A DNA stretch of 64,000 nt from Lachnospiraceae bacterium (GTDB lineage: Bacteria > Bacillota > Clostridia > Lachnospirales > Lachnospiraceae), in the NCBI GenBank assembly GCA_017467805.1, contig JAFUKJ010000045.1, positions 1,392 through 65,391 on the forward strand. The letters are read 5' to 3'. The translations under genes and the position numbers were made by a program. Positions 35,934-42,799 of this stretch are shown here, piece after piece. Position 1 is the stretch's first letter. Each line of letters opens with the position of its first letter. The notes under the pieces were generated by a model, which saw nothing but the letters and a program-made list of their open reading frames with translations, ran no database searches and was not told where the DNA came from.

Positions 35934-36533
35934 ATGAAGAGAAGATTTTTAGCATTAGCTTCAGCAGTTATATTAGTGTTCGGCGCACAGATGACAGCTT
36001 TTGCAGCAAGTCCAACTGCAGAGGAGTTACTTGCACCAAGAGTAGACATTGTTGTTGATTTCGAGGATGTGGATGTTTCTGTTGCAGATGGTGATGTAAA
36101 GGTTTATGATCCATCCGCTGGATTTAAGGTTAGCGTTGTGGAAGCAGTGCAGGAGAGCTTAGGTGAAGAGGTTACAATCAAGAGCATTGTTGATGTTGAA
36201 GGTAAGGGTTCTGTAATATTGAATGTACCTGGAGTTGATCCAACAGAGCTCGTTAAGTTGCTTGCTTATAACAATGCGGAGCAGATGTGGGAGTTCCTTC
36301 CAATCGCTACAGCAGATGATATGGTTAGTACAGAGCTTGATGACCATAGCAAGCTTGTTATTTTAGTAGATGAGGCAGTAGCGTTAGCTGATTCAACACC
36401 TGTTGATTTAGACTCAAGTGCATTGATTGCTCCAAGAACAGGTGAGATGGGCGTTGCATTAGTTGTAGTTCTTGCATTAGGCTGTACAGCACTTGTAGCA
36501 GTTTCTAAGAAGAAACTTGCAGTTAATAATTAA
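35934..36533 (+). CDS. Secreted surface protein A with a sortase sorting signal
   Basis: Signal peptide ending AFAA; C-terminal APRTGE, hydrophobic segment and KKK tail; RBS GGAGG. Confidence 0.8.
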   Translation: MKRRFLALASAVILVFGAQMTAFAASPTAEELLAPRVDIVVDFEDVDVSVADGDVKVYDPSAGFKVSVVEAVQESLGEEVTIKSIVDVEGKGSVILNVPGVDPTELVKLLAYNNAEQMWEFLPIATADDMVSTELDDHSKLVILVDEAVALADSTPVDLDSSALIAPRTGEMGVALVVVLALGCTALVAVSKKKLAVNN

Positions 36534-36572
36534 TTTGTATTTTTATATTTAAGATATGTGTGGTTTTGATGG

Positions 36573-36602
36573 GGTCCCCGGTGTGAGTCGGGGACCTGTT
36601 TT
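36573..36602 (+). terminator. Terminator after surface protein A
   Basis: GGTCCCCG/CGGGGACC followed by TGTTTT. Confidence 0.7.
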
Positions 36603-36643
36603 GGGTAGAGAGTTTGGAATTACAGACTGTTTAGGGAGGAAAA

Positions 36644-37726
36644 ATGAAAGAAAAGAAAAAGTCAAAGGTTCTTAAGGGCGTTTGTGTATTTATAGTTTGT
36701 ATTGCAATATTAGCAGTAATGGGAATTGCGACATTTGCAATTGTAAGTAATATAGGAAAACAGAATCTGAAACAGAAGGCGACATCAACAGCGCCAGTGC
36801 TTACTAATGTGACAGTGAATCAAATAGAGAATGAAGAGAAAGAAGAAGAGGATGTTCTGAAAGAGGGACAGATTTATTATAACGGGCAGAAGTATCAGTA
36901 TAATGAGGACATTATGACCTTTGTAATCATGGGAATTGATTATATGGGAACGGTGGAGGAGTTATTGGCAGAGTCTATGGGAGGACAGTCTGATATGAAC
37001 TTTCTGGCGGTGCTCAATCCACATGAGAAAAGCCTAAAGCTGATTATGATTAACCGTAACAGCATGACACAGATACAGCGTTTTGCAACGGATGGAACCT
37101 ATGTGGATACTGTAGATGCACAGATAACATTACAGCATGCATATGGAACTGGAGGAACAGACAGCTGTGAGAAGATGGTTGCTGCTATTGATAATTTGAT
37201 GTATATGATACTGATTCATGGATATTTTGCTATGAACATGGGAGCGATTACGACGCTAAATGATGCCATAGGCGGTGTAGAACTTGTTGCTATGGAGGAT
37301 ATCAAGCATTACGGAACTGATATTAAAAGAGGTGAAACGGTTCACTTACTGGGTGAGGATGCTTTCTGGTATGCAAAGTTTCGTAATCAACATATTCCAG
37401 GTTCGGCGAATGCCAGACTGGAGCGACAGAAGCAGTATTTAAATGCTTTTCTTCAGAAGATGAAGCGAATGGTTAAGGAGGATATGGCATTACTAGTAGA
37501 TTTGTACAAGATTGTAGCAGAATATTCAGTAACAGATGTGTCAGTAGATGAGATGACTTATCTTGTATCTCAGATGATTGGATATAGCTTTGATTTGGGC
37601 AGCATATATTCCGTACCTGGAGAAACAGTAGTAAATGGTGAGTATGAAGAATATTATGTGGATGAAGAAGCCTTGTATGAAATGATTGTAGACATATTCT
37701 ATGAGCCGATAATGGAGGGAGAGTAG
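36644..37726 (+). CDS. LCP (LytR-CpsA-Psr) family protein 1
   Basis: N-terminal TM; GQSDM, INRNS, QHAYG, DAIGGV, YAKFR, ARLERQ, FYEP. Confidence 0.85.
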   Translation: MKEKKKSKVLKGVCVFIVCIAILAVMGIATFAIVSNIGKQNLKQKATSTAPVLTNVTVNQIENEEKEEEDVLKEGQIYYNGQKYQYNEDIMTFVIMGIDYMGTVEELLAESMGGQSDMNFLAVLNPHEKSLKLIMINRNSMTQIQRFATDGTYVDTVDAQITLQHAYGTGGTDSCEKMVAAIDNLMYMILIHGYFAMNMGAITTLNDAIGGVELVAMEDIKHYGTDIKRGETVHLLGEDAFWYAKFRNQHIPGSANARLERQKQYLNAFLQKMKRMVKEDMALLVDLYKIVAEYSVTDVSVDEMTYLVSQMIGYSFDLGSIYSVPGETVVNGEYEEYYVDEEALYEMIVDIFYEPIMEGE

Positions 37727-40392: not shown

Positions 40393-40424
40393 ATATCCCT
40401 GGTGAAAGCCAGGGATATATGTTT
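40393..40424 (+). terminator. Probable terminator after surface protein B
   Basis: ATATCCCTGG/CCAGGGATAT followed by ATGTTT. Confidence 0.65.
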
Positions 40425-40503
40425 ATAAAGGATTTGCATAGTAACTGATGTTGTCGAGAGACATTGATTTAGACAAGAGAGAGTATTGAGTTAGGAGAAA
40501 TCT

Positions 40504-41955
40504 ATGAGTGAAGAAAGTAAGAGCATAGAACAACAGTCGAACGGAAGCACAAGTGAACATAGAGAGCATGGAAGCGGACATCATCATCATGGTTCGCACA
40601 GACATCGTAGAAGAAAGAAGAAAAATAAAGCATTACAGATTACTTTAATTATATTATTGTGTATCGTCATGCTGGCACTGGGTGGTGTGATAGCATTGGC
40701 GGTTATGAACTATACAGGTGGCAGGAACCTGGAGAAGAATGCAACTACCACTGCACCAGTAATGGAAACACAGGTGGTTGAGACACAGGTTTATCAGAAG
40801 ATTGATTTGGACGAGGAATTGGCATTAGTACCATTGGATGATGAGATAGAGACAGCTACAGTGGTGGAAGCAGAGAGTGTGACGGAAACAGTTGTAGAGT
40901 CAGAGGTTGTCAGTGAGTCAGAGACTGCGGTGGTGCCTGAGACTACAGTAGTACCTGAGACGGTAATGGTTCCAGCTGAGGATGCGATTGAGCCAGAGGT
41001 AGTACAGGAAAGTGTAGCACCGATAGAGGTTCCCGAGGAGGAGAAGGCTCAGCTTGCTATCTTTGATGGTAATCTGAAGGAAGGTCAGGTTATCTATAAT
41101 AATGTGGTATTCCAGTATAACAGCGATATCAGAACGTTTGCTATTTTCGGTGTTGATACTATGGGTACTATGAATGAGCTGCTTGCAGAGCAGATGGGCG
41201 GTCAGGCAGATATGAATATGCTGGCGGTGCTTGACCCACACAAGAAGAAGATTTCATTGATTACGATTAACCGTAACACTATGACAACGATTGACAGATA
41301 TACTACATCAAATAAGTACTATGATACTGTATGGGGACAGATTTGTCTTCAGCATGCATATGGTACAGGCGGCGCTGACAGCTGTCAGCGTGCAGTGGCT
41401 GCTATCGGTAGAGTGATGTATCAGGTACCGATTCATGGATATTTCTCTATGAATATGGGAGCGATTACTAAGCTTAATGATGCGATTGGTGGTGTAACGC
41501 TGACTGCAATTGAGAGTGTGAACAGAAAAGGAACAAACATTCAAAAAGGTGAAAAAGTGACTTTGTTAGGACAGGATGCGTTCTATTATGTTAAGTTCCG
41601 TCAGTGGGAAGGTGAGAGCAGCAGATATAGCGCGGACAGACGTCTTGAGAGACAGAAGCAATATCTTGCGGCGTTTGGGCAGAAGACCAAAGCAATGGTA
41701 AAGAATGATTTATCACTTCCACTTGATTTGTTGAGTGTAGTATCTGCGTACTCGGTAACTGATCTTACGGCAGATGAGATTGTGCATCTTGCATCTATGG
41801 CTGTAGGATATACCTTTGATGAATCCTGTGTTTATTCAGTACCTGGAGCTTCTGCTATGGGTACGAAGTATGAAGAGTTCTATGTGAATCAGGATGCGTT
41901 GTATAATATGATATTACAGATATTCTATGAGCCTGTGGCAGTAGTACCACAATAG
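40504..41955 (+). CDS. LCP family protein 2 with His/Arg-rich cytoplasmic tail and acidic linker
   Basis: HHHHGSHRHRRRKKK, TM, E/V/T/P-rich spacer, then GQADM, INRNT, QHAYG, YVKFR, RRLERQ. Confidence 0.85.
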   Translation: MSEESKSIEQQSNGSTSEHREHGSGHHHHGSHRHRRRKKKNKALQITLIILLCIVMLALGGVIALAVMNYTGGRNLEKNATTTAPVMETQVVETQVYQKIDLDEELALVPLDDEIETATVVEAESVTETVVESEVVSESETAVVPETTVVPETVMVPAEDAIEPEVVQESVAPIEVPEEEKAQLAIFDGNLKEGQVIYNNVVFQYNSDIRTFAIFGVDTMGTMNELLAEQMGGQADMNMLAVLDPHKKKISLITINRNTMTTIDRYTTSNKYYDTVWGQICLQHAYGTGGADSCQRAVAAIGRVMYQVPIHGYFSMNMGAITKLNDAIGGVTLTAIESVNRKGTNIQKGEKVTLLGQDAFYYVKFRQWEGESSRYSADRRLERQKQYLAAFGQKTKAMVKNDLSLPLDLLSVVSAYSVTDLTADEIVHLASMAVGYTFDESCVYSVPGASAMGTKYEEFYVNQDALYNMILQIFYEPVAVVPQ

Positions 41956-41998
41956 GAGAATCATTGAAACAGAAGAGGAACAGCAAGAGGGAAGGCAT

Positions 41999-42799
41999 AT
42001 GTTGAAAAGATGGGTAGTAAGTATAGTGGCTGCTATTATGTTGGTATTGACTCCGATGCAGGTATCGGCGGCTCAATTGGCTTGGTCGAGAACGGAAAGT
42101 AGTGCTCTGTTGTGGACAGTAGCGGATGCAGTTGTCTATAATGGATGTTCGACAGATACAACCATTACGAAGGTGCTGGGAGTGATTCCAGCAGGGAGTT
42201 TTGTGCAGATAACTGGATATTGTGATAGTGGAACAGAGTTGTTTTGCGCGATTAATTATCAGAATATGAAGGGATATGTATCAAGAGCAGCACTGGATGC
42301 ACCTGTGCGTTATGAGGTGATTCGTGAGAATCTGTCTTTAGTATCTAGAGGTTCGCTGACAGGTTATACGCAGGAGCAGTTGGCAAAGCTAATCGTATCT
42401 GCGATAGTGCTGCCAGAGATGACTCAGATGCAGAAAGCGGCAGCTATCCATGATTATCTTTGTATGACGGTCAGCTATGATGAGACCTTAAGCAAGTATT
42501 CGACTATGGATGCATTAGTTGGGGGAAGCGGAGTGTGTCAAAGCTATGCCAATGCATTCAACGTGTTGGCAACAGCAGCTGGCTTGGAGTCTGATTTCTT
42601 GGGAGGATTTGTGCTTGAGAATGGCGTATGGATTTGTCATGCGTGGAATCGGTGTTTGGTAGATGGACAGTACTACTATCTGGATGTTACATGGGATGAT
42701 GAAGGCACATTTGCAGGGAGAAAGCTTTTTTGGACAACAGATGCCACACTTGGAGGAACTCATTATATGACTATGATAAATCCTAAAAGAGTTGAATAA
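41999..42799 (+). CDS. Secreted SH3-like plus transglutaminase-like protein
   Basis: Signal peptide; ..INYQNMKGYVS SH3-like end; triad GVCQSYA, HAWN, YLDVTWD. Confidence 0.78.
   Translation: MLKRWVVSIVAAIMLVLTPMQVSAAQLAWSRTESSALLWTVADAVVYNGCSTDTTITKVLGVIPAGSFVQITGYCDSGTELFCAINYQNMKGYVSRAALDAPVRYEVIRENLSLVSRGSLTGYTQEQLAKLIVSAIVLPEMTQMQKAAAIHDYLCMTVSYDETLSKYSTMDALVGGSGVCQSYANAFNVLATAAGLESDFLGGFVLENGVWICHAWNRCLVDGQYYYLDVTWDDEGTFAGRKLFWTTDATLGGTHYMTMINPKRVE

Follow-up and report, generated by a model that had tools for sequence, protein, structure and literature searches.

Capsules of gut Lachnospiraceae influence colonization and inflammation. In Mediterraneibacter (Ruminococcus) gnavus, the capsule disappears and colitis in mice becomes more severe when the srtB4 cluster is lost. 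The polysaccharide coat depends here on an enzyme that sorts proteins. What could connect the two? We examined this question in a stretch of 64,000 nucleotides (the window) from a Lachnospiraceae bacterium, comprising positions 1,392 to 65,391 of the forward strand of contig JAFUKJ010000045.1 (assembly GCA_017467805.1). Here, a class B sortase (SrtB) is encoded among two genes for LytR-CpsA-Psr (LCP) proteins and two genes for small secreted proteins, called A and B, directly ahead of a capsule locus. A candidate for the missing piece is a small carrier protein that is paired one to one with its own LCP.

The source draft genome has a size of 2.99 Mb and is 95% complete, and its closest public relatives are Lachnospiraceae metagenome-assembled genomes (MAGs). 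On the plus strand, the genes are ordered as follows: a SARP-type regulator, A, LCP1, SrtB, an ATLF/M34-type protease, B, LCP2, a transglutaminase-like protein, cpsBCDE, and then the Wzx/Wzy genes. A first-pass annotation, made from the DNA letters and open reading frames (ORFs) of the window, had reported the seven genes from A through the transglutaminase. All seven were recovered with the same start and end coordinates, and all lie on the plus strand.

Our preferred interpretation, to which we give an even chance, is that this module at the head of a Wzy-dependent capsule locus serves to attach the polymer to the wall, with LCPs that load it onto small carrier proteins by means of two cassettes. 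Each LCP would move the undecaprenyl-pyrophosphate-linked cps polymer onto its cognate small protein, on which an N-terminal segment rich in Ser and Thr, or else the stalk, is the likely acceptor. SrtB would cut A between the Thr and Gly residues of APRTG and join it to peptidoglycan, yielding a protein-tethered capsule, and B together with LCP2 would yield an unanchored, releasable conjugate. Both cassettes would be driven by the SARP regulator, and trimming or release might fall to the M34 protease and to the transglutaminase-like enzyme as clade-specific factors. The sequences themselves show the gene content, the paralogy, a lone sortase for which a crude scan gave A as the sole convincing substrate, the conservation of synteny, the pairing of each protein with one LCP, and the homology with the srtB4 cluster of M. 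gnavus. From these comparisons, described below, we infer that glycan and protein are covalently linked, at which site this occurs, and what the protease and transglutaminase do.

Two cassettes of small secreted proteins and divergent LCPs

Protein A (35934 to 36533) starts with a signal peptide. Its mature form begins with ASP and continues through an invariant LLAPRVD motif, a core of ~105 residues, and a short stalk with a conserved LDSS motif to the sequence SSALIAPRTGE, which is followed by a hydrophobic transmembrane helix and KKK. With this IAPRTGE signal, A corresponds to the small secreted [S/A]PxTG protein of srtB4-type capsule clusters. It is also the only convincing sorting-signal ORF in the genome, as judged by a crude scan for xPxTx followed by a hydrophobic helix and a basic tail.

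Protein B (39657 to 40334) aligns with A at 30% identity (E 3e-26). After its signal peptide come four PSPEA repeats, a tract of Thr and Ser, a LIAPRLD motif, and a core domain as in A. Its N-terminal insert of 60 extra residues derives from tandem duplication (27 bp present twice and 75 bp present 2.1 times). The earlier description of B as an unanchored, Ser/Thr/Pro-rich paralog of A is correct; these residues are concentrated in the N-terminal insert, and B lacks a sorting signal. The same is true of the observation that each surface protein is directly followed by its own LCP (A by LCP1 and B by LCP2), which is reinforced by the natural haplotypes discussed later.

The 5′ regions of gene A (35751 to 35933) and gene B (39440 to 39656) are homologous. 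They share sequence blocks, have a mean column identity of 74% in a pairwise alignment, and both include the ribosome-binding site GGAGGAGGAG, which is strong and lies ahead of the ATG at 35934 in gene A. Furthermore, hairpins are located at an equal distance 3′ of the two genes (36572 to 36597, −18.8 kcal/mol, for gene A; 40392 to 40419, −19.4 kcal/mol, z −4.2, for gene B). Both arms of the stem differ in sequence between the two hairpins, and both hairpins fold stably. Duplication therefore took in the control regions as well as the genes themselves. The predicted hairpin after gene A is likely an attenuating terminator or an mRNA stabilizer. In each cassette, a hairpin separates a small gene with strong translation from the enzyme genes downstream, and this arrangement suggests that A and B are produced in excess over the LCPs and SrtB.

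Neither A, B, nor four other members of their family gave any family match in Pfam or NCBIfam. In the AlphaFold2 model of A, residues 40-147 are predicted confidently as a beta-sandwich with one helix, and disorder is predicted for the stalk and for the first 15 residues of the mature protein. When the core was compared with the PDB using Foldseek, nothing scored below E 1e-3; the top matches were ankyrin ZU5 domains (E 0.015, probability 0.96, TM score about 0.3) and fall short of significance. The last strand carries an SxSP motif in most family members but HSK in A and B. The clade of A, B, and close family members (P0006-P0016) also has a conserved [ST][ST]D sequence located 6-8 residues upstream of AP.TG (window 36440-36500 in A; LDSSALIAPRTGE, VSSDALVAPFTGD, VSTDAYEAPFTGE).

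LCP1 (36644 to 37726), which is membrane-anchored, and LCP2 (40504 to 41955) are 56% identical (E 2e-122). Both align to TagV and pass the LytR_cpsA_psr model (PF03816) with 71 and 70 bits, respectively. The genome encodes four LCPs in total, and the other two are canonical proteins with a TRSD motif that are encoded elsewhere (C49 and C102), one of them adjoining another priming transferase. In place of TRSD, the first motif reads GGQSD in LCP1 and GGQAD in LCP2. This GQ[S/A]D form is typical of sortase-linked LCPs (42 LCPs, loci L013-L113), which we call the Gln-type clade. Members of this clade also have a conserved juxtamembrane motif, (W/L)KEGxIxYxxxxYxYNxDIxTF. Where most of them have xRD, LCP1 and LCP2 have NRN. 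The arginines of the xRD/xRN and RxxRQ motifs are retained in both proteins. LCP2 additionally has a His/Arg-rich cytoplasmic N terminus (EHREHGSGHHHHGSHRHRRRKKK, window 40504-40640) that is absent from LCP1, and a long acidic linker of Val, Glu, Thr, and Pro outside the membrane.

The gene for SrtB (37727 to 38560) begins without any gap after the end of LCP1 at 37726. A six-frame Pfam search revealed exactly one sortase in the genome. This protein passes PF04203 and scores 141.9 against TIGR03064, just below the cut-off of 153.75. Its best solved relative is 5gyj/4ux7 (annotated as “putative peptidase C60B, sortase B,” E 1.7e-25), which we take to be the SrtB protein of Clostridioides difficile. 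The catalytic residues align with those of this structure in a GHN motif, a TC motif, and a C-terminal Arg. By its sequence family and by its catalytic His, Cys, and Arg residues, the enzyme is a class B sortase.

A small and probably abundant structural gene that is followed by a hairpin and then by a sortase gene is also reminiscent of pilin operons. Accordingly, A and B might be viewed as subunits of a sortase-polymerized pilus or fiber. However, such a system would call for a class C sortase and at least two pilins with sorting signals, whereas the genome has a single class B sortase and no class C enzyme, and only A has a signal. A pilin-type Lys motif was not recognized in these proteins, and the mini-substrates of related loci (see below) cannot polymerize. 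We therefore consider a pilus to be extremely improbable, and we rejected this reading because the sortase, of class B, and the anchored protein are each single.

Distribution of the trio and its genetic precedent

We surveyed 251 Lachnospiraceae genomes from 250 genera, or nearly one genome per genus. LCP1-like genes (E ≤ 1e-35) were found in 61 genomes, with 71 matches. At least 48 of these matches are within 5 kb of an srtB gene and at least 46 are within 1 kb, representing at least 44 of the 61 genomes; these values are lower bounds, with several matches located at contig ends. Among 40 sortase-LCP pairs from 39 genera, a subset that was chosen for adjacency and to which all neighbor counts given here apply, at least 28 have an [S/A]PxT[G/A/S] ORF within 1.5 kb, and 29 have at least two cps genes in the same stretch. 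A profile of the A/B family recovers 213 clusters at 50% identity, nearly all of which are 180-260 amino acids in length and end with SPKTG, APKTG, or a similar signal.

In three Acetatifactor MAGs, the sortase, LCP, and A-like genes are inside the core operon (cpsB-C-D-SrtB-LCP-A′-cpsE). Duplicated SrtB-LCP cassettes are also found side by side in two other genera (L025 in G037:C42 and L030 in G143:C3), and thus cassette duplication recurs. In the second of these loci, a mirror-image SrtB-LCP pair surrounds one A-family gene. Judging from the gene content of these genomes, capsule loci of Lachnospiraceae widely contain a trio of sortase B, an LCP of the Gln type, and a small protein with an [S/A]PxTG signal.

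The first-pass annotation had proposed that its idea would fail if the gene association were not conserved. In our survey for the A/B family, LCP, srtB, and cps genes, the association is strongly conserved. Its designation of the locus as a candidate new system was too strong, since the trio occurs widely across the Lachnospiraceae and there is a genetic precedent from 2026. What is new here is the duplicated design with anchored and unanchored proteins, the existence of three haplotypes, and the constant presence of the M34 protease.

The precedent comes from M. gnavus ATCC 29149, in which srtB4 (RGna_12035), the adjacent LCP gene (RGna_12040), and cpsB (RGna_12055) are each needed for capsule display and also for competitive gut colonization (Nat Commun 2026, PMC13121745). 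The whole cluster comprises RGna_12030-12060. The authors of this study do not explain why the sortase is required and did not test the small protein. They also report that plasmids could be transferred into Enterocloster bolteae and E. clostridioformis. The published srtB4 primer had no match among the loci that we fetched. A metagenome scan identified human gut contigs that carry the primer sequence, and these have the order cpsC-SrtB4-LCP-(A-family SPQTG protein)-cpsB-cpsD. The A-family protein on these M. gnavus-type contigs matches the A1 profile with an E value of 2.7e-16, and SrtB and LCP1 of the window match their M. gnavus counterparts with E values of 2.7e-47 and 1.3e-53, respectively.

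On the strength of these alignments, the module in the window is homologous to the genetically validated srtB4 cluster of M. gnavus, which includes an A-family protein. Both place a class B sortase beside an LCP in a capsule locus of the cpsBCD type. The two systems differ in gene order and in the number of sortases, with eight in M. gnavus compared to one in the genome studied here. In addition, the M. gnavus contigs examined have one cassette, located in the cpsC-cpsD interval, and are without the unanchored cassette, the ATLF protease, the transglutaminase, and the SARP regulator.

Protein or peptidoglycan as the polymer acceptor

Close relatives of the source organism provide a set of natural variants. 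A nucleotide comparison revealed three haplotypes between one regulator and one cpsBCDE set. In L004, the A-LCP1-SrtB cassette is followed by the protease, and the order regulator-A-LCP-SrtB-protease-cpsBCDE is likewise found in L005, L008, and L009. In L092, the protease is followed by B-LCP2, and the sortase, A, and the transglutaminase are absent. The third haplotype, that of the window, has both cassettes and the transglutaminase. The B ortholog in L092 (82% identical) is unanchored and forms, with its LCP2 (76% identical), the only cassette of that locus. Furthermore, a more distant contig with other flanking sequences (L006) has the order regulator-B′-LCP-SrtB-transglutaminase-protease, and its B′ protein has the anchor APFTGD. 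Across the three haplotypes, the presence of the sortase follows the presence of the sorting signal, and each protein keeps its own LCP.

If two LCPs serve one polymer and each is co-inherited with a diverged partner, this is hard to square with both enzymes simply ligating the polymer to peptidoglycan. An LCP that works on or with its own partner would easily explain such pairs.

These variants also bear on the possibility that the block comprising B, LCP2, and the transglutaminase is a decaying duplicate in which B lost its function along with its anchor. The L006 relative keeps a sorting signal that B is without, and the block is missing from L004 and L005, both of which favor decay. However, both B and LCP2 are intact, and the unanchored pair in L092 is maintained as the sole cassette in a locus without a sortase. 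Moreover, unanchored A-family/LCP pairs are present in eight other genera, and the regulatory flanks and the 3′ hairpin of the block are conserved. We therefore find decay quite improbable. The notion that B is a pseudogene was rejected because its unanchored ortholog is conserved.

A more serious question is whether the capsule is joined directly by the LCPs to peptidoglycan in the manner of CpsA, with A and B serving as accessory adaptors and the sortase only fixing an adaptor in the wall. In streptococcal cpsA-cpsBCDE loci, the LCP CpsA ligates capsule to peptidoglycan. The locus in the window resembles these loci because an LCP heads a cpsB-C-D-E and Wzx/Wzy locus. Either LCP1 or LCP2 is in the cpsA position before cpsBCDE, and in relatives this protein is the sole LCP of the locus. 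In addition, the pyrophosphate-binding Arg residues of the xRD and RxxRQ motifs are kept, unanchored A-family partners fit the role of a soluble subunit, and direct ligation also accounts for the M. gnavus phenotypes. Unlike in streptococci, the window has two copies of an LCP of the divergent Gln type, each copy has a gene for a small secreted protein ahead of it, and the locus includes a sortase gene. The two canonical RSD-type LCPs encoded elsewhere in the genome count against direct ligation by LCP1 and LCP2. On balance, we regard direct ligation as a possibility to be held tentatively.

The diversity of the partner proteins provides further evidence on this question. In 8 of the 40 sortase-LCP loci, the partner is a mini-substrate of 79-107 amino acids that consists of a signal peptide, ~18-65 residues rich in Ser, Thr, Lys, and Glu, and a sorting signal, without a folded domain. 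With no domain that is capable of binding, such proteins weaken the case that the LCP partners are adaptors for direct ligation. At the other extreme are 20 LCP1-like genes that have no adjacent sortase. An A-family protein is encoded directly beside the LCP in 12 of these, and 8 of the 12 have no anchor. Most of the 12 are within cps loci. The N termini of the unanchored partners are strongly Ser-rich and are often poly-Ser/Asp or Gly/Ser-rich (loci L118-L131; for example, L119 7188-7907, L125 7367-8047, L127 8944-9672, and L131 7201-7929). L119, which has a poly-Ser/Asp N terminus, is from the second sampled genome of the genus to which the window belongs. From this distribution, the pair formed by the protein and its LCP seems to be more basic to the system than the sortase.

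Mini, anchored, and unanchored forms have in common just the signal peptide and an N terminus rich in Ser or Ser/Thr, which again argues against adaptors for direct ligation. Across the family (proteins P0001-P0155; window 35934-36020 for A and 39657-39900 for B), a Ser at mature positions +2 to +4, mostly within a Ser-Pro sequence, is nearly invariant and is conserved to about the same degree as the Pro and Thr of the sorting motif. A Ser-Pro sequence is present within the first seven mature residues of 53% of family members compared to about 2% of control secreted ORFs, although these figures come from a crude detector applied to related sequences and reflect a conserved motif rather than a count of independent events. 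Protein B has amplified this N-terminal motif fourfold (PSPEA x4) by tandem DNA duplication. The N-terminal Ser-Pro motif could be a modification site or a specialized export signal.

An LCP that acts on a protein has been described previously. The first-pass annotation cited LcpA of Actinomyces oris as an enzyme that glycosylates the protein GspA encoded beside it, and this account is accurate: lcpA sits just downstream of gspA, and the glycosylation of GspA depends on LcpA even when GspA is without its sorting signal (PMC6381275). In its gene layout, the A. oris pair is like A-LCP1 and B-LCP2, with the LCP gene immediately downstream of the partner gene. Moreover, the LCP acts on protein and not on peptidoglycan, and its independence from the sorting signal parallels the unanchored B protein. 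A. oris differs in that it is an actinobacterium whose sortase is a housekeeping enzyme of class E and whose signal is LPXTG, and its pair has no link to a Wzy capsule locus. Catalysis on protein has been demonstrated in A. oris, whereas for the LCPs in the window we infer it.

Taken together, the comparative data favor a function in which the LCPs load polymer onto protein, and thus the interpretation of the first-pass annotation, in which the LCPs may attach the Wzy polymer to A and B, is partly supported. Several considerations nevertheless weigh against this interpretation. Elsewhere, LCPs are known to ligate polymers to peptidoglycan. A carrier without an anchor, as B would be, does not on its own hold the polymer on the cell. 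The activity of LCP1 and LCP2 can only be assumed because the first motif has Gln in place of Arg and because NRN replaces xRD. With a draft that is 95% complete, a further sortase or substrate may have escaped the searches of the genome, and the detectors for sorting signals and signal peptides were crude regular expressions. The neighbor counts also describe only the 40 pairs selected for adjacency, taken from 39 genera. Finally, the authors of the M. gnavus study read their own LCP as a peptidoglycan ligase (PMC13121745).

A broader and more tentative proposal is that Lachnospiraceae capsules are proteoglycans, in which Gln-type LCPs would join the polymer to the Ser(-Pro) N terminus or the stalk of a modular carrier. 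In some loci this carrier would be no more than a peptide, in others a beta-sandwich protein that its own sortase B anchors, and in still others a secreted protein without an anchor. The organism studied here would then make both anchored and releasable forms of one polymer, and the M34 protease would be a shedding switch, possibly acting at L[IL]APR. We hold this larger idea to be possible but doubtful. If loading onto protein is correct, protein glycosylation by LCPs would no longer be confined to a single actinobacterial case but would also apply to a major Firmicutes family of the human gut, and it would represent a new mode of capsule attachment. The anchored, unanchored, and combined haplotypes, along with the mini-peptides, are natural experiments that make the hypothesis of a protein-linked capsule testable.

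The protease and other neighboring genes

The gene at 38716 to 39336 encodes an ATLF/M34-type zinc metallopeptidase (PF07737, 42.7 bits) with an N-terminal hydrophobic segment. Its HEMGH and EYFAEAF motifs, which are invariant in five orthologs, supply the HEXXH sequence and the downstream Glu ligand of the M34/ATLF fold. An AlphaFold2 model based on the five sequences was poor (pLDDT 39.5), and the best match in the PDB is PPEP-2 (6fpc), which is distant (E 0.002). The protease gene occurs in each of the three haplotypes as well as in L006, and two further ATLF genes adjoin LCP1-like genes.

This gene content raises the prospect that A, SrtB, and the protease constitute an independent anchor-and-release adhesin system, similar to CD2831/SrtB/PPEP-1 of C. 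difficile, for which the capsule locus is a neighbor that shares its regulation. The best solved relative of the protease is consistent with this view, as are the closest solved sortases, which are of class B and which we presume to be from C. difficile. The sorting motif in A is similar to the (S/P)PxTG kind used by that species. We know of no LCP or capsule linkage in the C. difficile system. As in the window, an M34/ATLF protease is encoded beside a sortase substrate both in C. difficile (SrtB, PPEP-1 or Zmp1, and CD2831) and in Paenibacillus alvei (PPEP-2), and substrates of PPEP-1 and PPEP-2 are indeed encoded beside the protease gene (PMC8610288).

Against this proposal, neither A nor B contains any Pro-Pro sequence, and thus they are without the Pro-Pro-X-Pro site that PPEP enzymes cut between the first two residues. 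The protease should therefore not be filed as a PPEP. A cyclic di-GMP riboswitch was not found in the region from 33000 to 46000, and the match to PPEP-2 is distant, which further separates the locus from that of C. difficile. Moreover, no homolog of the protease was found in the 40 loci sampled from other genera, whereas the linkage to LCP and cps genes is general. The sortase and its substrate are also found between core cps genes in Acetatifactor and M. gnavus, and the sortase mutant of M. gnavus loses its capsule. An independent adhesin system is consequently an improbable explanation. With regard to possible protease sites, an L[IL]APR motif occurs near both ends of A, and the clade-specific sequence L[LI]APR[VIL]D, where the core begins, resembles the C-terminal L[IV]AP[RF]TG. 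Its assignment as a protease site is pure speculation.

The secreted transglutaminase-like protein (41999 to 42799) had been annotated as an SH3-transglutaminase. The transglutaminase core stands, since PF01841 passes with its Cys, His, and Asp residues, but the SH3 part is weakly supported, with an SH3_3 match of 20.1 bits compared to a threshold of 27 bits. A 70% identical ortholog is present in L006, and the gene is absent from L004 and L092. The SARP-type regulator (34545 to 35750) has the Pfam domains Trans_reg_C (OmpR-like DNA-binding) and BTAD, followed by about 150 C-terminal residues without a family match, and it heads the module in L004, L005, L092, and L006.

Among the 40 sortase-LCP loci sampled from other genera, homologs of the regulator and the protease were not found, and homologs of the transglutaminase were absent except for one distant transglutaminase-like ORF. 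Therefore, all three proteins are best viewed as clade-specific extras rather than as core components. The roles in remodeling a glycan coat that had been ascribed to the protease and the transglutaminase are thus overstated and, given the absence of Pro-Pro sequences, speculative.

An Rfam scan by E value identified no riboswitch or other RNA element in the window between 33000 and 46000. A subthreshold match to STnc40, a Salmonella small RNA, is located at 39327-39396 at the 3′ end of the protease gene (29.5 bits compared to a gathering threshold of 45, E 0.09) and is most likely due to chance.

Downstream of the module, the genes for cpsB (phosphatase), cpsC (Wzz), cpsD (bacterial tyrosine kinase), and cpsE (priming transferase) occupy 43084 to 46734 on the plus strand. 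The variable part of the capsule locus follows on the same strand from 46807 to 60044 and encodes glycosyltransferases, an EpsG/Wzy-type polymerase (51562-52689), and a Wzx flippase (53802-55211). Among the variable genes from 48050 to 60044 are three for polysaccharide pyruvyltransferases and one for an FrhB/FdhB-like Fe-S flavoprotein. This gene content suggests that the capsule polymer is heavily pyruvylated or is modified with acidic groups in another way.

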